Position numbers and translations under genes: made by a program
The notes under the pieces: generated by a model
The model's input: only the letters and a program-made list of their open reading frames with translations
Database searches by the model: none
Told to the model about the DNA's origin: nothing
Shown here: positions 9,678-38,149 of the stretch, piece after piece
Layout of the letters: every line of letters starts with the position of its first letter
Position numbering within the stretch: the first letter of the stretch is position 1
IMG/VR virus record: IMGVR_UViG_3300025327_000007
DNA from: a virus
DNA length: 39,115 bases
Reading direction: 5' to 3' (one strand)

Positions 9678-11072
9678 CTACTCGATGTACACGACGCCCC
9701 AGTAAAGAACGGTCGTTGGATTCGTGACGAACGTCGGATAAACCAGCTTGATCTCGAAGTAGTCGCCCGCCACGACAGCAACCGACACGTCGGCACCGTA
9801 AGTTTGATAGGCGGTATTGTGCTGCGCCGTAGTCGTGATCGTCGTATCCGTCGTGTTGTTCAAGCGGAAGTAAACCGACGTGTTCTCGGTCGTCCCGAGT
9901 ACGCCTGCCACCAGGATGTTGATATCGACGCGCTTGACGGTGCCCGCTTTTTGGATTTGAACACGTAGAATGGCGGCGGTGGCTGTAGCACCAGCAGCAG
10001 GTAGCCCCCCGATGTAGAGAGTCGCTGCGTCGGCCGGGCTTGTGGAAGCGCAGGCAAACTGGAGGTGTCTTCCCGCGCCCAGCGTTGCACGTTGAGTAGC
10101 AGCGTCCGCATCGTCCAGCAGCGCACGCCCCGCAGCCGTACAAGCGATCTCTTCGACGTCGCCCGCGCCCGCCGTAGAACGGCCGAGTAGTTTGTCTGTG
10201 GCGCTGACGTTCTGAACCTTCGCATACGTGACCGCATCATTGTCGATCTGTGCAGTACCGACCGTTGTGAGCGTAGCAAGGGCGCCCAGGCCAAGCGTTG
10301 TACGTTGAGCAGCCGCGTCCGCGTCGTCGAGAATCGCCCGACCCGCTGCGGTACACGCAATCTCCTCAGTGTCGCCAGCGCCGGCCGTAGAGCGACCCAA
10401 CACCTTGTCCGTAGCGCTGATGTTCTGGATCTTTGCGTACGTCACAGCATCATTGTCGATTTGCGCTGTGCCAACGGTCGCTAGTGTAGCGAGCGCACCA
10501 AGCCCTAGTGTGGTCCGCTGGGCAGCGGCATCGGCATCGTCCAGCAGCGCTCGACCCGCTGCGGTGCAAGCAATTTCCTCTACATCCCCGGCTCCCGCAG
10601 TCGACCGGCCGAGCACCTTGTCGGTAGCGCTGACGTTCTGGACCTTCGCGTAGGTGACCGCGTCGTTGTCGATTTGCGCCGTCCCTACCGTTGCGAGAGT
10701 CGCTAGCGCCCCGAGCCCTAGCGTGGTCCGTTGCGCTGCGGCGTCGACGTCGTCGAGGATGGCGCGACCAGCCGCCGTGCAGGCGATCTCTTCCGGGTCT
10801 CCCGCGCCCACAGTGGACCGTCCGAGTACCTTGTCCGTGGCGGACACGTTCTGCATCTTGGCGTAGGTGATGGCGTTGTCCGGCACGTCGGCCTTGGCCT
10901 GCCCGGCTGTCGCCAGATCCCAGGCGACAGTAGCCGTATCCGTGACGACACGCTCGGCGGTCAACGATGCGTGAGCGCTGCCCACCAGATACTGTGCATC
11001 AGTCGGTGCGCCGCCTCCACCCACTGCTGCAGAGGGAATGCTCAGGCCGCGTTGGAGCGCACGTCCGCTCAT
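9678..11072 (-). CDS. Tail fibre protein with four 60-aa tandem repeats
   Basis: Start MSGRALQ.. with ATGA coupling. The repeat unit is TVGTAQIDNDAVTYAKVQNVSATDKVLGRSTAGAGDVEEIACTAAGRALLDDADAAAQRTTLGLGALATL. The C-terminal domain is beta-rich. Confidence 0.7.
   Translation of the reverse strand: MSGRALQRGLSIPSAAVGGGGAPTDAQYLVGSAHASLTAERVVTDTATVAWDLATAGQAKADVPDNAITYAKMQNVSATDKVLGRSTVGAGDPEEIACTAAGRAILDDVDAAAQRTTLGLGALATLATVGTAQIDNDAVTYAKVQNVSATDKVLGRSTAGAGDVEEIACTAAGRALLDDADAAAQRTTLGLGALATLATVGTAQIDNDAVTYAKIQNISATDKVLGRSTAGAGDTEEIACTAAGRAILDDADAAAQRTTLGLGALATLTTVGTAQIDNDAVTYAKVQNVSATDKLLGRSTAGAGDVEEIACTAAGRALLDDADAATQRATLGAGRHLQFACASTSPADAATLYIGGLPAAGATATAAILRVQIQKAGTVKRVDINILVAGVLGTTENTSVYFRLNNTTDTTITTTAQHNTAYQTYGADVSVAVVAGDYFEIKLVYPTFVTNPTTVLYWGVVYIE
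10075..10890. repeat. About 4 tandem copies of a 180-bp coding repeat
   Basis: The 180-nt periodicity is visible in both the DNA and the protein. Confidence 0.85.
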
Positions 11073-11455
11073 CCGAGAGGGTAGCCTCGTCCCGGATCGC
11101 TCGCCAGGTTCCAATCCGGGTTTCCGGTCGTGATCTCTGTCAGCACGAACGTTCCGCCCGCAGCACTCGATATGCCGTAGACCGGGCCGGCCCAGCCATC
11201 ATCGAAGTAGACGCCGCCCAGGCCATCATCCGCAGTGGAGCACGCCTTGAGCGCGATGTGATACGCCAGTTGATCCGGCACAGTTGAGCCGAGCGCAAGC
11301 TTGATAACAGTGGTGCCCGTGTTCTGGACGATCAAGCCCTTCCGCTTCGGGTTCGCAGCGACGATCAAGGCCGCGGTATCGGCGATGCTCGTCTGCGCTG
11401 GCGCCGTCGCAGCGATCTGCGGGCTGCCCTCGACTAGCGCACGGACCGTACTCAT
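11069..11455 (-). CDS. Hypothetical protein (128 aa), fibre-associated by position
   Basis: Tracked ORF. Confidence 0.6.
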   Translation of the reverse strand: MSTVRALVEGSPQIAATAPAQTSIADTAALIVAANPKRKGLIVQNTGTTVIKLALGSTVPDQLAYHIALKACSTADDGLGGVYFDDGWAGPVYGISSAAGGTFVLTEITTGNPDWNLASDPGRGYPLG

Positions 11456-12216: not shown

Positions 12217-13608
12217 TCAGAACCTCGCAGGCCGGCAGACGGCCACGTATCCGCCCTTGCGCACGCGGCCGTTCGCGAAAACGATGTCGAACTGCTCGCT
12301 GCGGTCGTTGCTGTCCTTGACGCCGACTTCGTCATCGGACCCGCCTCCGGGCGTCTCCATCTTGGTCGTGGCGCAGAGCCCGCGCAGGCGTAGGCGGCGC
12401 GCGACCTCGGCGGTGAACTCGGCTTCATCCGCCACTTGGTTCGTCCCGCGCTCCGCGATGATCTCGTCGAGCACCTCGTCCACGACGCCCTGGAAGCGCG
12501 ACGGGCCACACCACTCACGCCACTTCTCGACCATCCGGCAGCAGCCGTAAATGCCCTTCTCCTCGCTGCCTGGCGCGCTGCACTCGGGCATCGGCGCAAC
12601 CCCGCACGGAGTCGGGGCGGGCACGGGTGCGGCGCCACCACCGAACATGGGCAAGAGGCGGAACCACTCCGAATCCGAGAGAGTTCCTTTCCACGCGATC
12701 AGGTGCCCTCCGTTCGCCCGGCTGAGACGCTGCATCTCCAGCCAATCCTCGGGCGTGTGGGGTTCGTTGTCGGACTCGATCAGCAGCTCGCCCCTGACAG
12801 CCGGGCGCCAGCCGTGGCCGACGACGAAGTCGAGCGCGTACCGGCCGCTGTTGCTCCCGATCAGTTTCTCGAACGGCGAGAGCCCCGATTCTTCTAACGC
12901 ACCTTGGACCGCTCGATAGATCCCGCGGATCCACGCCTCCGAGCGCTCGCCCTTGAAGCTCTCGTTGCCGTCGAAGTACACCGCGGCGGGCGACTGGCAT
13001 GTCGCCTCGACCACTTGGCGGATCCAGTCCTTGTGCCTCTGCTCCGGCGCGCGCGCCGTGACCTCCAGCCCATCTCCCCACGGCGTCTTGTCGTGATCCA
13101 GCGCCCAATGGTCGATCAGGCCGATCAGCGCGTAGATCCCGCGGGCCTCGCACTCGCGCACCGTGCGCGCCAGCTCCGGTAGCAGCGCCTCTGGCGAGGG
13201 GCTGCGGAATGGTCCGGGGCGCAGCTCGGTGATGTTGATGCCGGCCGCAGCGTAGCGATCGAGCATCGCGGGGATCACCAGCGGCCAGCCCCAGGCGATG
13301 CCCTCGTCCACGTCGGGCGTGTCGGGGTCGTCGCAACAGACCGTCGCCCCGATTAGCGGCGGGAAGAACTCCGGGAACTCGTACCGCAGCTCCGGCATCG
13401 TCGGCTCGGGCGGAGGCGGTGGCGGCGGAGGCCCAGCGTCCGGAAAGCGCTCCGCGAACTCGGGACTGCGCAGCATGTCCTCGCGGAGCTGCGCCTCGTG
13501 CAGACCTGCCTGCATCCGCGCGTTGTGGTGAAGCAACCCTTCGGCATCTGGCTCACGAAGCAGGATCTCACGATAGGCTAGCGCCACGACGTGACGGAAG
13601 TCGCTCAT
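12217..13608 (-). CDS. DUF4214-like N-terminal domain + proline linker + clan GH-A-like glycoside hydrolase + Cys-rich C-terminal domain
   Basis: YREILLREPDAEGLLHH..SPEF matches the DUF4214 pattern and is followed by P8. The motifs YFDGNESF and LLIESDNEP are TIM-barrel-type. Confidence 0.55.
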   Translation of the reverse strand: MSDFRHVVALAYREILLREPDAEGLLHHNARMQAGLHEAQLREDMLRSPEFAERFPDAGPPPPPPPPEPTMPELRYEFPEFFPPLIGATVCCDDPDTPDVDEGIAWGWPLVIPAMLDRYAAAGINITELRPGPFRSPSPEALLPELARTVRECEARGIYALIGLIDHWALDHDKTPWGDGLEVTARAPEQRHKDWIRQVVEATCQSPAAVYFDGNESFKGERSEAWIRGIYRAVQGALEESGLSPFEKLIGSNSGRYALDFVVGHGWRPAVRGELLIESDNEPHTPEDWLEMQRLSRANGGHLIAWKGTLSDSEWFRLLPMFGGGAAPVPAPTPCGVAPMPECSAPGSEEKGIYGCCRMVEKWREWCGPSRFQGVVDEVLDEIIAERGTNQVADEAEFTAEVARRLRLRGLCATTKMETPGGGSDDEVGVKDSNDRSEQFDIVFANGRVRKGGYVAVCRPARF

Positions 13609-14003
13609 GTCACCCTCAACTGGAACTCAGGGCGGTTTCCCGCTCGGTTCATGAACTCGACGAAACCCGCCTCGCTCGCTGCGATCCCGGGCTGACCAGC
13701 AAACGTCGCGTACGACTCGCCTACGAGCACGCAGCCCTCGGAGTGTAGCTCCACGTTGCCCTTGTGGAACAGCAGCCGCGCGTGCCCAGGCACTTCGATC
13801 TCGTACGTGTCGTACTCGCCTCGGAGGTAGCGCGTCCGCACGCAGCGCCAGAGGCCAGCTGGGATCTTCACGAGCTGGCCCGGACCCGATGGCAGCGCGT
13901 AGGTCCTCTCCAGGGTCGTACAAAACGGAACGTCGTGATGAAGCAAGACACCGAACGCTCCTTGCGGCAATACGACAACTCGCACGAGGGTAAAGTCAGC
14001 CAC
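13605..14003 (-). CDS. DUF5675-like protein with YkuD-type H..S.GC motif (candidate cell-wall enzyme)
   Basis: VADFTLVRVVVLPQGAFGVLL..TLERTY..IPAGLW..LLFHKGNVELHSEGCVLVG. GTG 14003 overlaps the HNH stop. Confidence 0.6.
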   Translation of the reverse strand: MADFTLVRVVVLPQGAFGVLLHHDVPFCTTLERTYALPSGPGQLVKIPAGLWRCVRTRYLRGEYDTYEIEVPGHARLLFHKGNVELHSEGCVLVGESYATFAGQPGIAASEAGFVEFMNRAGNRPEFQLRVT

Positions 14004-14601
14004 GGGCACGGAACGCACGCGCTCTCGTCTTGCAGATTTCACGGTACTGCGAGTCCTCCCGATACCGTTGTCTGCGTCGCGCATTTTCTCTGGTGCGGAA
14101 CCAGACAGAATCTTGTCGCCGCCGATAGTCTGCTGTCTTCTTTGCAGAGCATCGCCGACAGTGACGCCTCCCTGACCTGGCAACGTCGAATTGGTGCCCG
14201 CGGAGGCATTCCGTTTTTCGCGCGTTTACCGCCGTCACGCCAACACCGCGCAGTACGTTTTGTCCCCTCGTCGTTACTTCAAGGTGGTTCGGGTTCACAC
14301 ACCGGCGCACGCGGCATAGGTGATCGAGGGTGAGTTCCGTGGGAACAGGACCAACCAAATGTTCGTAAGCGTACCTGTGGGCGGAGGTCTTTCGATCTAC
14401 AAGCGTGAAACCTCCATACCCATTGGACGTCGATCCCCCGAGCCAACCCCAACAGTCGCCATGGCGAAAACCGCCGACTTCCATCGGGATCACCTTGGAC
14501 CAAAACCTGTTCGGGAGACGATCGTCGCCAAGTCTGCAAGGCAGTACGCCGAACGCGCCCTCGGGACGGATCGCGACGCGCAGCAGACCGAAGTCCTCCA
14601 T
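13996..14601 (-). CDS. HNH (HNH_3-type) homing endonuclease fused to a 20-aa DUF5675-like leader
   Basis: RFWSKV..CWGWLGGSTSNGYGGF..AHRYAYEHLVGPVP..LDHLCRVRRCVNPNHLE, plus a C-terminal CLRGH..CRRC. GC is lower. Confidence 0.8.
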   Translation of the reverse strand: MEDFGLLRVAIRPEGAFGVLPCRLGDDRLPNRFWSKVIPMEVGGFRHGDCWGWLGGSTSNGYGGFTLVDRKTSAHRYAYEHLVGPVPTELTLDHLCRVRRCVNPNHLEVTTRGQNVLRGVGVTAVNARKTECLRGHQFDVARSGRRHCRRCSAKKTADYRRRQDSVWFRTRENARRRQRYREDSQYREICKTRARAFRARG

Positions 14602-14792
14602 CACCGAAACTCCGCACGCACGCCGTGCCGCGCCATGTGCTCCACCACAGCGTTGATGGCTCCCTGCTTGGTCGCGTACACCCGAACGAACGAGCACTTC
14701 CCGCACGCCCAGCGCAGGCCGCCGCCTGCAACTGGCACCAGAAACACGACCGCACCGCCTCCGGCTTCGCCAGCGACTACGTGCGCCGTCAC
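14601..14792 (-). CDS. Hypothetical protein (63 aa)
   Basis: GTGA-coupled start VTAHVVAGE.. inside tracked ORF 14601..14861. Confidence 0.45.
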   Translation of the reverse strand: MTAHVVAGEAGGGAVVFLVPVAGGGLRWACGKCSFVRVYATKQGAINAVVEHMARHGVRAEFR

Positions 14793-15246: not shown

Positions 15247-15536
15247 CACCACACCTCGGGCGCGCACCCGCCCGCCTGATATCCGTGCAGGTACTGCTGC
15301 CCGAAGTCGAGCAGCACGAAGCGCCCCCCAGCCTGGTCGCACAGGAAGTACAGCACCATCCGCTTGTCCCGATAGAGGATGTTCCCGGTTGGTGCCTGCT
15401 GAATCGTCGTCGGGATCGGCTGGGTCGCCGGCTTCACCGGCTTCGCCGCGCCTAGGCCGCCGGCTCCAGCAATCCACCCGAGCAGCGCAGTCGCCGAGCA
15501 GAACAGGAGCAGCTCGATCAGGCGTACCCGATCCAT
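15246..15536 (-). CDS. Signal-anchor/secreted hypothetical protein (96 aa)
   Basis: Tracked ORF with N-terminus MDRVRLIELLLFCSATALLGWIAGAGG. Confidence 0.55.
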   Translation of the reverse strand: MDRVRLIELLLFCSATALLGWIAGAGGLGAAKPVKPATQPIPTTIQQAPTGNILYRDKRMVLYFLCDQAGGRFVLLDFGQQYLHGYQAGGCAPEVW

Positions 15537-17332
15537 TATTCCCTCGCGTACGTCAGCAGGTTCGGGCCCACGACCCCGGTCAGCGTGTCGGGCGTGGCGC
15601 TCGCCAGCACGCAGCGCATGACCTCGACCGGGTCACCCGTGGTGCGCTGCGCGCAGAGCGCAGCGACACCTGCGGCGTGAGGGGAGGCCATGCTCGTCCC
15701 GCTGAAAGTGATTGAGCCGCCCCCGCGTCGTGCTGCCTCGATGTCCATGCCAGGACCATAGAGGTCAGTGCAAGGACCGCCGTTGCTGAAATCGGCCCCG
15801 CGATCGTTTCGTGGGTCCATGGCGCCGAGAGTTAACGCCAGATCCACACGGGCCGGCGAGGATCCGCAGGCATCGGCGCCATCGTTACCAGCTGCGACCA
15901 CGACCGTGAGGCCATCCGCGATGGCAGCGCAGACCGCAGCGTCGAGAGCAGGCGCAGGCGAGCCGCCGAGCGACATGTTGAGCACGCCGTTCCAACCGCC
16001 AGCCTTCCGATTCGCCGCAGCCCATTGGATACCACGGACTACGTCGGAATCGGAACCGCTGCCTTGCTCGTTCAACATCCGCACCGAGTGCAGAGTGACA
16101 CGTTTCGCGATGCCGTACTGTGTACCACCCGTGATAGAAGCCACGTGCGTCCCATGGTTGTGACGGTCCTCGCAGCCACCAAAGGTGTGCGCAGTGAAGC
16201 ACTCCCCCAGACGTCCAGCGAATTCGGAATGCTGCGAGTCGATGCCCGTGTCTCCGATGTACGCATGGATGCCCTCTCCAGTCCCAACGGGAACGAAGAT
16301 GCCGTCAAGAGGCAAGTCGCGCTGATCCGAGCGATCGAGACCGGGCGTGACAGACACGGTCAAATGTGATACTGTCTGTCCATGCACGCTCGAAACTCCG
16401 GATCCTTCCGGCCTGGGCACAAGACGTGGAACAAAGGACTGCTGAGACCACGCAGCGAACTCGGCGTCCGCTTCCAGAAGTACATACGGCCAGTGAACAC
16501 GGGCTGCCATCTCTGGACTGGAGGCTTCGCGCACGGATATGGACGCTTCCGTTTCACCACGGACGAAAGCAGAAATGCCCATCGTGTGGCTTACGAGTTG
16601 TTCGTTGGCCCGATCCCGACGGGGATGCAAGTCCATCACATCTGTGGAACGCGTGCTTGCGTCAACCCCGATCATCTGCGACTGATGACCATCGGACAGC
16701 ACACCTCGCATCATTTCCGAGGCAAGCCGAAGCGTGGTCTGCGGTGTCGCAATGGACACGAACTCTCGGCCGCGAACCTGCGAGAGGTCTATCCTCCGAA
16801 TCGCCCTGGACCTTCCATGCAATGCCGTCTCTGCGAGCGAGATCGAGGACTGCGTTGGCGAAGCCGCCACCCCGAGACCTATCGGGCCGGATACACCAGA
16901 AGCAACTTGCGACGCCAGAACCAACACACCTGAGCGCGTACTCTTGCGCCCGTCTTGCTGGACGTACGCCACCTCCGGATCGAGCGCTACCTGCGAGGCG
17001 CCCGCCGCTGTCGTCACCGCGCTGAAACCGAGGCTCCCGAGCGTCTGCACCTGGCTCAGCACCGAGTACCGGGCGGCGACCGCCTGCACCTCAGCCTGGG
17101 TCCGCACCGACTGTGCCCCCACGCGCGGACGCAGCACGACGATGTATCTGCCCTCGATCGGCTCGGCCACGGAGATCACGCCGCGCAGCGCGGGAGGCGC
17201 GGAGCAGACATAGGGCGTCTCCGGCTGCGGCGTCGGGATCGGGAAGGGCGGGCTCGGGATGGGGATCGGGAAGCCACCTCCGCACGACACCAGCAGCAGG
17301 CACAGTACGATCGCGATAGCGTGTCGAATCAA
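15536..17332 (-). CDS. Subtilisin-like (S8) serine protease lipoprotein with I9-type propeptide and a ~200-aa insert
   Basis: Catalytic triad DTGID / HGTHVAS / GTSMASPH. GGAGG lies 6 nt upstream of TTG 17332, giving MIRHAIAIVLCLLLVSC (lipobox). The insert is the antisense of the HNH gene. Confidence 0.8.
   Translation of the reverse strand: MIRHAIAIVLCLLLVSCGGGFPIPIPSPPFPIPTPQPETPYVCSAPPALRGVISVAEPIEGRYIVVLRPRVGAQSVRTQAEVQAVAARYSVLSQVQTLGSLGFSAVTTAAGASQVALDPEVAYVQQDGRKSTRSGVLVLASQVASGVSGPIGLGVAASPTQSSISLAETALHGRSRAIRRIDLSQVRGREFVSIATPQTTLRLASEMMRGVLSDGHQSQMIGVDASTRSTDVMDLHPRRDRANEQLVSHTMGISAFVRGETEASISVREASSPEMAARVHWPYVLLEADAEFAAWSQQSFVPRLVPRPEGSGVSSVHGQTVSHLTVSVTPGLDRSDQRDLPLDGIFVPVGTGEGIHAYIGDTGIDSQHSEFAGRLGECFTAHTFGGCEDRHNHGTHVASITGGTQYGIAKRVTLHSVRMLNEQGSGSDSDVVRGIQWAAANRKAGGWNGVLNMSLGGSPAPALDAAVCAAIADGLTVVVAAGNDGADACGSSPARVDLALTLGAMDPRNDRGADFSNGGPCTDLYGPGMDIEAARRGGGSITFSGTSMASPHAAGVAALCAQRTTGDPVEVMRCVLASATPDTLTGVVGPNLLTYARE
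16382..16933 (+). CDS. HNH (HNH_3-type) homing endonuclease nested antisense in the protease ORF
   Basis: CHLWTGGFAHGYGRF..AHRVAYELFVGPIP..VHHICGTRACVNPDHL, plus CRNGH..CRLC. This is the only convincing plus-strand gene. Confidence 0.8.
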   Translation: MHARNSGSFRPGHKTWNKGLLRPRSELGVRFQKYIRPVNTGCHLWTGGFAHGYGRFRFTTDESRNAHRVAYELFVGPIPTGMQVHHICGTRACVNPDHLRLMTIGQHTSHHFRGKPKRGLRCRNGHELSAANLREVYPPNRPGPSMQCRLCERDRGLRWRSRHPETYRAGYTRSNLRRQNQHT

Positions 17333-17464
17333 GCCACACCTCCTTCCTGAAAAGCGCTCACCGAGCAACCCGCCGGCCTGGTAGACTCGCGCCAACCGCA
17401 CCACCAGAGGCGAGAGGACTCGACCCGACTGGACCATGCGCCAGCGGGCTGCTCGCTGAGCGCA

Positions 17465-17779
17465 TCACGGGCACCCAAGCCGGCAACCCGCCGGCCGACC
17501 GGCGGCCACACAGTGACCGTTGCGGGCCGCGGCGGGCAAGCTGAGCCACGCTACACAGTCCGCGCGCCGGTCGTCGGCGTCGTGGTCGCTCACGATCGAC
17601 ACCAGACACGGGCCCACAAGCGCGTTGAACGCCGCTTGTTCGGTCCCGAGCCCACGATCCGTGCGGACGCGCTGAACCGTCACCTGTTCGCGTGCGGTGG
17701 CGTTGTAGGTGTAGCTGGTCTGTGCGACCACGAGTGCGGCTACGAGGAACAGCAGTACGGCGAATGCGACCTTCTTCAC
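17465..17779 (-). CDS. Secreted small protein (104 aa)
   Basis: AGGAGGG lies 4 nt upstream of the GTG. Signal peptide MKKVAFAVLLFLVAALVVAQT. Confidence 0.6.
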   Translation of the reverse strand: MKKVAFAVLLFLVAALVVAQTSYTYNATAREQVTVQRVRTDRGLGTEQAAFNALVGPCLVSIVSDHDADDRRADCVAWLSLPAAARNGHCVAAGRPAGCRLGCP

Positions 17780-17789
17780 GAGCCCTCCT

Positions 17790-18641
17790 TTAGTTGGCGG
17801 AACAAAAGATCACCTTAAGCCATGCTGGACGATTGTCAAACGAATCCCCCGTGAACGTCGGCGCGGAGTTGGACCCCGCAGGCGTCCCCGCACTCAGAGC
17901 TTCGCTCGATCCGCTGAGCGTGTGCGCTGATGGCTGCGTGACGCTGTGGGTAAGCACAGCGCCTGGGCCAGCGGTCGTACCCGTGGCGATACCCGTGCTC
18001 TGGTTCGTAGCGGTCGCGTTCTGGTTCGTGGCTGTTGCGTTGTCGGTGACAGCCGTCGTGGCTGCCGCGGCGTTCGAGCGATCCATGAACGTCCCCGACC
18101 CATCTGTGGTGCCCTCAGCCATCCCATGCTGGTGAGCGTTCTGCGTGTGAGTGTGCGCGTCCTGCGTGTGCGTGTGCGAGACCACGTCGGTGTACGTGTG
18201 CGTGTGGCTCGCATGGTCGCCGACCGCAGTTCCGGCGTGCGCGCTCGTCGCGTAGGTGCCGGTTCCGTGAGCGTGCGTCCCGAGCGCTGAGCCGGTAAAC
18301 GTCGGCGCAGTCACTATCCCGGTCGGCGTGATGTTGTTACTGCCGCCGGTCGTGCCGACGTCTCCCGCACCGTTTGTGGTCCCGAGCAAGAACTTTCCGG
18401 CGAGGCTCGCGACCTCAGTAAAACCGGCAGGGCAGGACCCGCTCACGATCAAGATCACGGCACCTGACGGAAGCGCACCGCCTCCGCACGCAACCGTCGC
18501 GATCTCGCCGCCGACGCGCTTTAGACACTCGCCATCGTTGAGCGTCCCCAGCGATAGCACCGTGCCGGCCTGGTCGATGGCTACGCTGCCCTTGTAGACG
18601 GACTGACCTGACAGCAAACAAGCGACAAGCAGCGTTAGCAT
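17790..18641 (-). CDS. Phage tail-collar-type fibre protein with His-x-His repeats and a signal-like N-terminus
   Basis: MLTLLVACLLSG.. at the N-terminus. Collar-like motifs GAVILIVSGSCPAGF..GKFLLG. HxH-rich stretch HAHGTG..SHTHTYTDVVSHTHTQDAHTHTQNAHQH. Ends ..RPAWLKVIFCSAN. Confidence 0.65.
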   Translation of the reverse strand: MLTLLVACLLSGQSVYKGSVAIDQAGTVLSLGTLNDGECLKRVGGEIATVACGGGALPSGAVILIVSGSCPAGFTEVASLAGKFLLGTTNGAGDVGTTGGSNNITPTGIVTAPTFTGSALGTHAHGTGTYATSAHAGTAVGDHASHTHTYTDVVSHTHTQDAHTHTQNAHQHGMAEGTTDGSGTFMDRSNAAAATTAVTDNATATNQNATATNQSTGIATGTTAGPGAVLTHSVTQPSAHTLSGSSEALSAGTPAGSNSAPTFTGDSFDNRPAWLKVIFCSAN

Positions 18642-36989: not shown

Positions 36990-38111
36990 CTATGCCGAGC
37001 GCCGTCTCCTGCGTTCCAGCGCGTTGTAGTACGAGGCATGTTCCTCATACGAAGACGCGCGGGGATCGGGCTCCGCATCGACTACCGCCGTCGTTCCCGC
37101 GACTGGCCGCGCGGGACGCGGTGCTTGACTCGAGAGCTTGGGCGCCGGATTGCCAGCAGTGGCGGCGTCCTCCAACTTGCTCTCGATCTTCCCCATCTCC
37201 CTCTCAAACTCACGAGGGCGCAGCGTGGAGAGGCGCTGGATTACGTCCGGATGCGCCGACAGAAAGCGCATCAGCCGAGGCGCATCGGCTGAGCGTAGAC
37301 ACTCGTCTGCAAGTGCATTCGCCGCGTTCGGGGTGCGGCCATCCGCCAACGCGAAGACGGACGGCTCGAGGTCCTGCAACTCGGGCACCAGCTCCTCCAG
37401 AAAAGCGGCGCCTCCGGCTTCCGACATCTGCTTGTCGAAGCTTTCGAAATGCTTCTGCATCTCGCTCTGGAAGCTTCGCTGACGATCTCGGACAGAGCGT
37501 TCGGCCTCGGCTTTGTCGAGTGCCTTCCGCACCGCCCAATCGGTGTGGTCCTTCAGGAACGTCTGAAAGTCCTTGCCCGCAGCGTCGTACGCTTCGACCG
37601 TGGGCTCATCGTCGGCATCGTCCGCCGCCGGCGGCGGCGTGTCCTTGAGCGGCTCTCGAGTGGCAGTCCTCAGTCGCTCGATCTCAGCATCACGCTCGCG
37701 GAGCTGGCGCTTGAGCTCGGCTGCCTCGCGCGTGGCTTGCAGCACTCGCTCGCGGGCATCGCGCTTGCGCTTCTCGATCGCGACCGCCTTCTCGTCTTCG
37801 GACTCCGGCTTCGCAGTCGCCCCGCCGGGCGCCGCAGCCTTACCTTCAACCGCATCGGCCGCATCCTGGTCCTCACCCTCGTCGGCCTTGACGGGCTTCG
37901 TCTTGCGCGCCTCGGCTGCTGCCTTCCCGCCCAACTGACCCAGCTTCGCGGCAGCCGCAGCAGCTTCGTCCTTCGCGGATGGCGCCTCGAGAGCGGTACG
38001 CACCTGATCTTCGGTGAGCCGGTTGCTGTCGGCAGTCCAGCCGTCGTGCTCGACAGTCACGTAGCTGGTGTTCCCGGTAGGCGCGTTGCCGACGCCCTCG
38101 GTGGAGGTCAT
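36990..38111 (-). CDS. Scaffolding protein
   Basis: 373 aa, highly charged and helical (A/E/K/R-rich). It lies between portal and coat. Confidence 0.7.
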   Translation of the reverse strand: MTSTEGVGNAPTGNTSYVTVEHDGWTADSNRLTEDQVRTALEAPSAKDEAAAAAAKLGQLGGKAAAEARKTKPVKADEGEDQDAADAVEGKAAAPGGATAKPESEDEKAVAIEKRKRDARERVLQATREAAELKRQLRERDAEIERLRTATREPLKDTPPPAADDADDEPTVEAYDAAGKDFQTFLKDHTDWAVRKALDKAEAERSVRDRQRSFQSEMQKHFESFDKQMSEAGGAAFLEELVPELQDLEPSVFALADGRTPNAANALADECLRSADAPRLMRFLSAHPDVIQRLSTLRPREFEREMGKIESKLEDAATAGNPAPKLSSQAPRPARPVAGTTAVVDAEPDPRASSYEEHASYYNALERRRRRSA

Positions 38112-38119
38112 CAGCGGAA

Positions 38120-38149
38120 AGTATCGACCCCCCGCCAGGCGCTTGTCAA
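38120..38149 (-). promoter_or_regulatory. Promoter P4 (TTGACA-18 nt-GATACT), only 8 nt upstream of the scaffold ATG
   Basis: Minus strand reads ggcTTGACAagcgcctggcggggggtcGATACTttccgctgATG. Confidence 0.45.

Follow-up and report, generated by a model that had tools for sequence, protein, structure and literature searches.

The window analysed here, the 39,115-nucleotide stretch of IMG/VR virus record IMGVR_UViG_3300025327_000007, is a tailed-phage genome (~39 kb, 65% GC) in which almost all genes lie on the minus strand; products recognised with PHROGs are the major head, scaffold and head-closure proteins and a terminase. On its minus strand is a gene for a subtilisin-like protease (subtilase) of 598 residues, and inside the open reading frame (ORF) of this protease, on the plus strand and in exact codon register, lies a complete gene for an HNH endonuclease. 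A preliminary description made from the letters alone had placed both genes at these positions and in this arrangement, and had described the nested gene as a homing endonuclease that may have invaded the protease gene. The locus contains the following features, in coordinates of the window.

15536–17437, minus strand: full open stretch of the protease ORF, with TTG at 17332 as the most plausible start.
15536–17332, minus strand, stop included: protease ORF of 598 amino acids, with a lipoprotein signal, an I9-like propeptide, the antisense-encoded insert and an S8 domain.
17339–17343, minus strand: ribosome-binding site GGAGG, 6 nt ahead of the TTG start at 17332, read from the sequence.
17282–17332, minus strand: signal peptide, residues 1–17, with lipobox L-V-S-C (LLLVSC), read from the translation.
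16934–17200, minus strand: I9-type propeptide, residues ~45–133, with C-terminal end ..VAYVQQDGRKSTR (from Pfam, AlphaFold2 (AF2) and comparison with the homologue P0002).
16355 (or 16361)–16933, no strand assigned: inserted cassette of 573–579 nt, or 191–193 codons, delimited by alignment to insert-free homologues.
16382–16933, plus strand: HNH_3 (His-Me finger) endonuclease gene, a 552-nt ORF of 183 amino acids (from Pfam, alignment and AF2).
16365–16373, plus strand: extended −10-like element TGTGATACT, 8 nt ahead of the HNH ATG (16365–16384 with the ATG).
16301–16345, minus strand: catalytic-domain start PGLDRSDQRDLPLDG, the most conserved protease motif adjoining the insertion and a candidate recognition or cleavage region.
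15700–16354, minus strand: foreign catalytic core, residues ~329–540 (212 residues, ~650 nt), delimited by DNA identity and third-position GC (GC3).
15536–15699, minus strand: C-terminal ~55–58 codons, P0002-like (93% amino-acid identity).

The 598-residue protein matches Peptidase_S8 (PF00082) in Pfam with an E value of 7e-33. Its match to Inhibitor_I9 (PF05922) is below the cut-off (E = 0.0095, 17 bits against 21.2), and PF05922 is carried by homologues of the protease. The catalytic domain begins ..VTPGLDRSDQRDLPLDG, and in an alignment of 50 sequences the Asp/His/Ser triad (D361, the H393/H396 region and S547) and the oxyanion Asn (N483) all occupy invariant columns. More than 17 metagenome contigs have the identical protein among their gene calls. 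AF2 models the propeptide (residues 45–133) and the catalytic domain (residues 345–598) at a predicted local distance difference test score (pLDDT) above 90, the former as a β-α-β fold with a C-terminal strand at residues 121–131. The preliminary description had asked whether the segment between them would form a separate lobe: the flanking domains do fold in the model, but residues 135–344 are unstructured at a pLDDT of 21–40. The linker from propeptide to catalytic domain is ~200 residues long here, compared to the ~10–20 residues usual for S8/I9 proteins, and the excess is the insert.

The plus-strand ORF is a full-length match to HNH_3 (PF13392; 60.1 bits against a cut-off of 24.8, E = 1.6e-16). 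It retains all ten invariant columns of a 30-sequence alignment, C-terminal zinc ribbon included, the motifs checked being H..C....C.NP.HL...H/N and a C-terminal C..H...C..C. The last motif residue is His, where Asn is usual, and the same holds for the second nested gene described below. A putative NUMOD3-like motif is visible by eye at the N-terminus. The AF2 model has a pLDDT of 83, and its top structural matches in the Protein Data Bank (PDB) are I-PpoI and I-HmuI, both weak (E from 6e-3 to 1e-2, template modelling score ~0.3); a sequence search of the PDB gave no match. Homologues of the nuclease number in the hundreds and occur as ordinary free-standing genes. The exact sequence itself was not found among 15 billion predicted proteins, and both nested genes, that of the window and that of the second example, are uncalled in every contig examined; of the two overlapping ORFs it is the longer one, that of the protease, which gene callers retain.

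The two frames share codon boundaries because the distance between the protease stop and the HNH start (16382 − 15536 = 846) equals 3 × 282. Read in the protease frame, the HNH ATG becomes a His codon and its TGA becomes a TCA Ser codon. A stop in the protease frame would require a TTA, CTA or TCA codon in the nuclease gene; the gene contains 13 Leu and 9 Ser codons, none of which is one of these three, and the protease frame is therefore free of stops throughout. The remaining two antisense frames of the nuclease gene contain 6 and 2 stops.

A search of 5.8 billion proteins yielded 804 protease homologues, and among the best 120 of these the lengths are 348–440 amino acids, barring the cluster of the query and one C-terminally extended protein. 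The insert is missing from the closest homologue, P0002, and from nearly all of the ~800 homologous proteases. P0002 has 434 residues and is encoded on five contigs (L001–L005), obtained in the sampling project that also yielded the allele with the insert. Its sequence ..GRKSTRA-VPWGLDR.. corresponds to ..GRKSTRS[insert]VSVTPGLDR.. in the window, which gives a clean empty junction GRKSTR|AVPWGLDR; the junction region of the L001 type carries the sequence GRKSTRAVPWGLDRIDARDLPLDG, and a peptide such as EFVSIATPQTTLR is encoded by the antisense linker of the window. The site is thus present in occupied and empty form in otherwise close alleles, as it is for homing endonuclease genes. Alignment to insert-free homologues narrows the extra segment, earlier put at roughly 16345–16960, to the HNH ORF up to its stop plus a leader of 21–27 nt: one edge is a TCA that is exactly the reverse complement of the HNH stop, whereas the other lies 21–27 nt past the HNH start and is uncertain by ~6–12 nt.

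Other explanations of an interrupted gene were considered at this site. A group I intron is rejected, since both strands of 16100–17200 match no such intron or other Rfam family at E values up to 1 and the 21–27 nt outside the HNH ORF leave no room for a ribozyme. An intein is likewise rejected: no intein or Hint family is matched in the Pfam search at E values up to 0.1, there is no splicing domain, and the nuclease is on the opposite strand. Several homologues had looked like variants of the arrangement. P0078 (581 residues) has a C-terminal extension and no insert, and P0121 and P0122 are one protein with differing start calls. P0243 (279 residues), the best match to the catalytic core, was considered as a split gene; only small unannotated genes lie upstream of it, in a region that was not scanned for an uncalled HNH gene.

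Beyond what the preliminary description had noticed, the insert arrived together with or beside a foreign catalytic core. The propeptide part is 92% identical to P0002 at the protein level, and the DNA of the flanks is 85–93% identical to L001 and 87–93% identical when L001–L005 are compared, whereas the core is only ~50–77% identical to L001. The third-position GC is 0.6–0.7 in the core as opposed to 0.88. The allele is a chimera that carries the cassette and ~650 nt of foreign catalytic core. A search for the donor of the core returned no relative above 65% identity, and the DNA of the region matches none of 50,697 phage records. The foreign block as a whole measures ~1.2 kb (about 15700–16933), with the nuclease gene at one of its ends. 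Such a one-sided foreign tract fits what co-conversion during endonuclease-driven repair produces, the association of endonuclease genes with the edges of exchanged segments being documented elsewhere (PMC2988022, PMC10448857); ordinary recombination in mosaic phages is an alternative.

A sharp module boundary is located at 17463, just upstream of the protease gene (L008, L019, L020, L002). In some contigs tail genes of the L002 type, including one for an SO2946-like_C protein, are joined to the window-type insert-bearing protease gene, which therefore resides in at least two phage backbones.

A second example of the arrangement was found with phmmer, using the 193-residue antisense insert peptide as query against 1.84 billion representative proteins. 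There were three matches: the query's own protein, P0360 and P0361. P0360 (E = 1.5e-6), matched at the equal relative position, is the product of an open 623-codon ORF at locus L032. It is also a protein with a lipoprotein signal, an I9-like propeptide and an S8 domain (3.5e-38) in which all catalytic motifs are intact, and it has a ~200-residue insert at the joint between propeptide and catalytic domain. On the opposite strand, L032 2003–1380, is an HNH_3 gene of 207 amino acids (1.7e-9, 37.6 bits), in exact codon register and oriented as in the window, its TGA providing a Ser codon after the propeptide. The ATG-side junctions of the two cases agree within one codon.

The two nested nucleases are 52–54% identical and are each other's closest relatives, all others being at most 48% identical over half the length. 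The protease cores of the window and L032, on the other hand, are 54% identical to each other, while each is 64–68% identical to insert-free proteases. The nucleases are thus mutually closest while the cores are closer to insert-free proteins, which argues for site-specific mobility, and the comparison fits a putative transfer of the element among divergent protease genes, with a single specific site as its destination. The two nuclease genes differ by 0.35 at first, 0.39 at second and 0.60 at third codon positions, and the amino-acid identity is 52% for the nucleases compared to 31% for the antisense peptides. As judged from this pattern, the HNH frame is under purifying selection and the antisense peptide is a passenger.

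Searches for more members of this nuclease lineage, run with the protein alone and with an alignment of the two sequences, covered IMG/VR, JGI metagenomes and GTDB genomes and found only the same allele. P0361 is not a third case. This 126-residue protein is not a protease but the spurious antisense reading of an unrelated HNH_3 gene (L033 4866–5429), which has methyltransferase, SNase and Schlafen-like (defence-type) neighbours; it is an instance of a shadow ORF that entered protein collections.

The window contains another HNH_3 gene in the usual orientation (13999–14706, minus strand; Pfam 9e-11), between an 86-residue gene and a DUF5675 gene. Its product is 31% identical to the nested nuclease and shares its architecture. 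Some contigs have the gene annotated (201 amino acids), others, L006 and L009, show an unannotated gap of ~580 nt in its place. One contig that is otherwise 100% identical to the window (L019) has an L001-like patch of ~200 nt at 13300–13507, with 41 substitutions and a 6-nt indel. The patch lies ~500 nt away from the second HNH gene and is possibly a further conversion tract associated with a nuclease. Matches to the HNH protein were also obtained with tblastn in largely unannotated DNA of the GenBank records of Gordonia phage Ribeye (L036, 15038–15514) and Clavibacter phage CN1A (L043, 8777–9127); these could be endonuclease genes that have decayed or been overlooked, that of Ribeye being located between the capsid protease and major capsid genes.

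The nested nuclease probably has its own extended −10 promoter that gives rise to a leaderless mRNA, as suggested by the conservation of the element in L032 and by a spacing equal to that of the scaffold gene. The preliminary description had remarked on this −10-like element and on the identical spacing, and both observations stand. In L032 the element is TGTGGTACT, again followed by 8 nt and ATG, and the joint form of the two is TGTGRTACT-N8-ATG. GATACT followed by 8 nt and ATG occurs twice, as opposed to 0.22 occurrences expected. An inverted repeat to which the same description had drawn attention, ACAGACA/TGTCTGT around the −10 element, is present in the window, but this 7-nt repeat is probably due to chance since it is not conserved in the second example. 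Upstream of the scaffold gene (38107–38149, minus strand), TTGACA is followed by an 18-nt spacer, GATACT, 8 nt and ATG. A Shine-Dalgarno sequence is absent, and the layout points to a strong promoter and a leaderless late mRNA and hints at the translation habits of the host.

A propeptide of a subtilase can act in trans, and the N-terminus of the mature enzyme is flexible. The joint between the propeptide and the catalytic domain is therefore plausibly a permissive site. The mature chain of aqualysin-1 (4dzt) begins 7 residues ahead of a conserved Trp. By this yardstick, P0002 would be cut near GRK|STRAVPW, and the insert would begin ~3 residues later. With the insert located just after the predicted cut, the junk peptide likely stays on the N-terminus of the catalytic domain and needs self-trimming.

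The protease may work despite the insert, with odds that we put a little better than even, and several preserved features speak for this. P0002 and P0360 keep the lipobox signal peptide, and neither insert-bearing protease has lost its signal peptide, its propeptide or any catalytic motif. At conserved columns the window protein has 17 deviations, compared to 15–27 in insert-free phage relatives, and the dN/dS ratio relative to the insert-free allele is 0.14–0.21 in the flanks. A broken frame would leave the catalytic half without a start signal and without an export signal. The motif WGLDRxDQRDLPLDG beside the insertion is mostly invariant or nearly so among 50 aligned homologues. It deviates in both carriers, with P in place of W in the window and, in L032, N in place of G, S of D, R of L and Q of P. 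These deviations would fit either immunity of the target site in carriers or a constraint that was relaxed after the insertion.

Combining these findings, we propose that a free-standing homing-endonuclease cassette has been inserted, reversed and in register, at the I9/S8 joint of a phage subtilase gene and has left the protease frame open, a reading to which we assign a probability of roughly 0.58. The nuclease would have an antisense promoter of its own that gives a leaderless mRNA, and the enzyme would nick or cut those protease alleles of co-infecting phages that lack the insert, within or close to the stretch that codes for WGLDRxDQRDLPLDG. Repair would then copy the cassette in and carry flanking sequence along with it. 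The protease would be exported and would fold despite its disordered linker of ~190 residues, the propeptide and the catalytic domain being separate folding units with a joint that is flexible and autocatalytically cut. The insertion would cost little because the protease itself trims the junk peptide. The antisense, stop-free and in-frame layout would do for this element what an intron or intein does for others.

Several observations weigh against this proposal. Only two lineages are known, and their stop-side junctions are ~7–10 codons apart. A scan of 15300–17600 for two-hexamer sigma-70 promoters and intrinsic terminators found none, the element TGTGATACT likewise going undetected. The earlier placement of the insertion at the joint holds, but the insert most likely does not simply leave with the propeptide, as the comparison with aqualysin puts it just after the predicted cut. 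Open antisense frames are common in GC-rich DNA, at ~4–30% per gene, and an open in-register antisense frame is present in 4 of 14 GC-rich HNH_3 genes of an ad hoc panel. The second case was found via its open ORF and is thus biased in its ascertainment. Finally, the ~17 window-type contigs are identical across the gene and therefore permit no population test of selection, and the insertion could be recent.

The last three of these points also speak for the rival in which a real insertion has left a dead protease, a dispensable gene having been disrupted and the 598-codon ORF being a read-through pseudogene that owes its continuity to a GC-rich antisense frame and its preference by gene callers to its length. 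In the genes of this phage, TTA, CTA and TCA together make up 1.0% of codons, and the in-register antisense frame is open in 14.5% of 193-codon windows, as opposed to 0.6% and 3% for the other registers. A spurious antisense ORF of 171 codons also lies over the unrelated HNH gene of L033. By codon usage, the chance of an open frame is 0.15–0.19 for the window and 0.03–0.04 for L032. However, an insertion at random needs both the right register and a length divisible by three, and from the values for the three registers an antisense insertion would keep the host ORF open in only ~2% of cases. Furthermore, the two nuclease genes differ at 60% of third positions and are both antisense-open; with synonymous sites largely randomised, the joint chance is ~0.2–8%, depending on the model. 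As open antisense frames are common, the evidence that read-through is selected is no more than suggestive. Indels at the junctions were rejected as a test of frame preservation, as they may pre-date the insertion as ordinary variation in coding length. Also against a dead protease are the signals and catalytic motifs kept in both proteins, the low flank dN/dS and the lack of excess deviations at conserved residues, and no member of the nuclease lineage was seen in a broken protease gene among the HNH homologues. We regard it as the less likely reading, although it is the strongest of the rivals.

Two further alternatives concern the nature of the element. The nuclease might not home at all but be a domesticated phage enzyme, serving for example in packaging or in degradation of host DNA, that came with the foreign core in a single ordinary recombination, illegitimate or homologous, and whose position is incidental. 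The position of the cassette at the edge of a larger exchanged block, the mosaicism of these phages with its breakpoint at 17463 and the conventionally placed second HNH_3 gene of the same phage are all compatible with this, and cleavage by the nuclease is a prediction. Yet junction, orientation and register recur in a 54%-identical protease whose nearest relatives are insert-free, insert-bearing and insert-free alleles share one environment, the cassette is minimal, as is typical of a selfish element, and the invariant motif next to the insertion is altered in each of the two alleles that carry it. Incidental placement of a non-homing nuclease is thus quite improbable. Even less credible, to the point of being very nearly negligible, is that the ~190 residues form a true domain of the protease, the HNH-like ORF on the other strand being a by-product or having arisen by overprinting. 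In favour are the in-frame translation of these residues and the presence of a related segment in a second protease; but the HNH ORF has hundreds of free-standing homologues, substitutions by codon position and the levels of identity fit the nuclease frame and not the protease frame, the segment has no predicted fold, and nearly all homologues lack it. The phmmer search found no protease that carries the segment without an HNH gene. Neither such a protease nor a plus-strand ORF that is not an HNH nuclease, the two outcomes named in the preliminary description as refuting it, was thus encountered, and its reading is supported.

Two other genes in the window are of a repetitive nature. A 213-nt tandem repeat (3.7 copies, 75% identity) at 10090–10870, inside a 478-codon ORF (9678–11114, minus strand), probably encodes a domain that recurs within a tail or fibre protein. 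Upstream of the protease region, a gene at 17790–18641 (minus strand) codes for a repetitive protein rich in Thr, His and Ala (..HTHTYTDVVSHTHTQDAHTHTQNAHQH..) with no match in Pfam or PHROG, possibly a fibre or receptor-binding protein.

Homing endonuclease genes are not known to persist in essential or conserved genes other than by means of self-splicing introns, inteins or, rarely, a host gene split into pieces that still work. The case described here suggests a fourth mode of residence that requires no splicing machinery: backwards, in frame and in a region that can be spared. In its general form, the claim is that antisense in-register nesting within a proteolysed linker is a splicing-free and harmless way of residing in a gene, the host translating through the element and the protease itself removing the junk peptide, that selection excludes TTA, CTA and TCA from such elements, and that they are systematically absent from protein databases, because gene callers drop the nested gene, and maybe widespread in GC-rich phages; we offer it tentatively, at somewhat less than even odds. 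If the protease is active, the locus shows how much unstructured sequence the joint of a zymogen can absorb, provides a natural example of an antisense frame selected only for the absence of stops, and exposes a blind spot of annotation for nested nuclease genes. The locus is, moreover, a further piece of evidence that exchanged segments of phage genomes have nuclease genes at their edges. Our literature searches found no precedent for an antisense read-through endonuclease insertion, which is not proof that there is none.

Among known systems, the free-standing seg and mob endonucleases of T-even phages are similar in being stand-alone genes with their own expression signals that are present or absent between close relatives (PMC2988022), and in residing in or beside a conserved gene and being linked to co-converted flanks (PMC2988022; for the boundary pattern, PMC10448857). 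They differ in that they lie between host genes, usually on the same strand, whereas the element described here occupies the opposite strand of a coding sequence and does not interrupt the ORF of its host gene. The mobE gene in nrdA of Aeromonas phage Aeh1, the ‘genes-in-pieces’ ribonucleotide reductase, is, in the accounts of it given by these two papers (Friedrich et al. 2007, via PMC2988022 and PMC10448857), likewise an HNH gene in a coding gene, at a place tolerant of interruption and with neither intron nor intein. As described there, however, two separately translated Aeh1 polypeptides reassemble, while here a single ORF reads backwards through the element.

Inteins with a homing-endonuclease domain also are in-frame inserts that are translated with the host protein and removed after translation, as is proposed here. 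In the present case there is no Hint domain, the nuclease is on the other strand, and removal would occur through proteolysis by the host protease itself, without religation. I-HmuI, encoded by the group I intron of the SPO1 and SP82 DNA polymerase gene, belongs to the same nuclease superfamily and also interrupts a phage gene, but the element in the window has no ribozyme and the opposite orientation. Finally, the ‘shadow’ antisense ORFs of GC-rich genes have an in-register frame that is open for the same reason, the rarity of TTA, CTA and TCA; the open antisense stretch described here differs from them in being joined in frame to both halves of a real conserved gene. The element is of a known kind, that of free-standing homing endonuclease genes, and resides in a coding sequence in a manner unlike that of introns, inteins and split genes.

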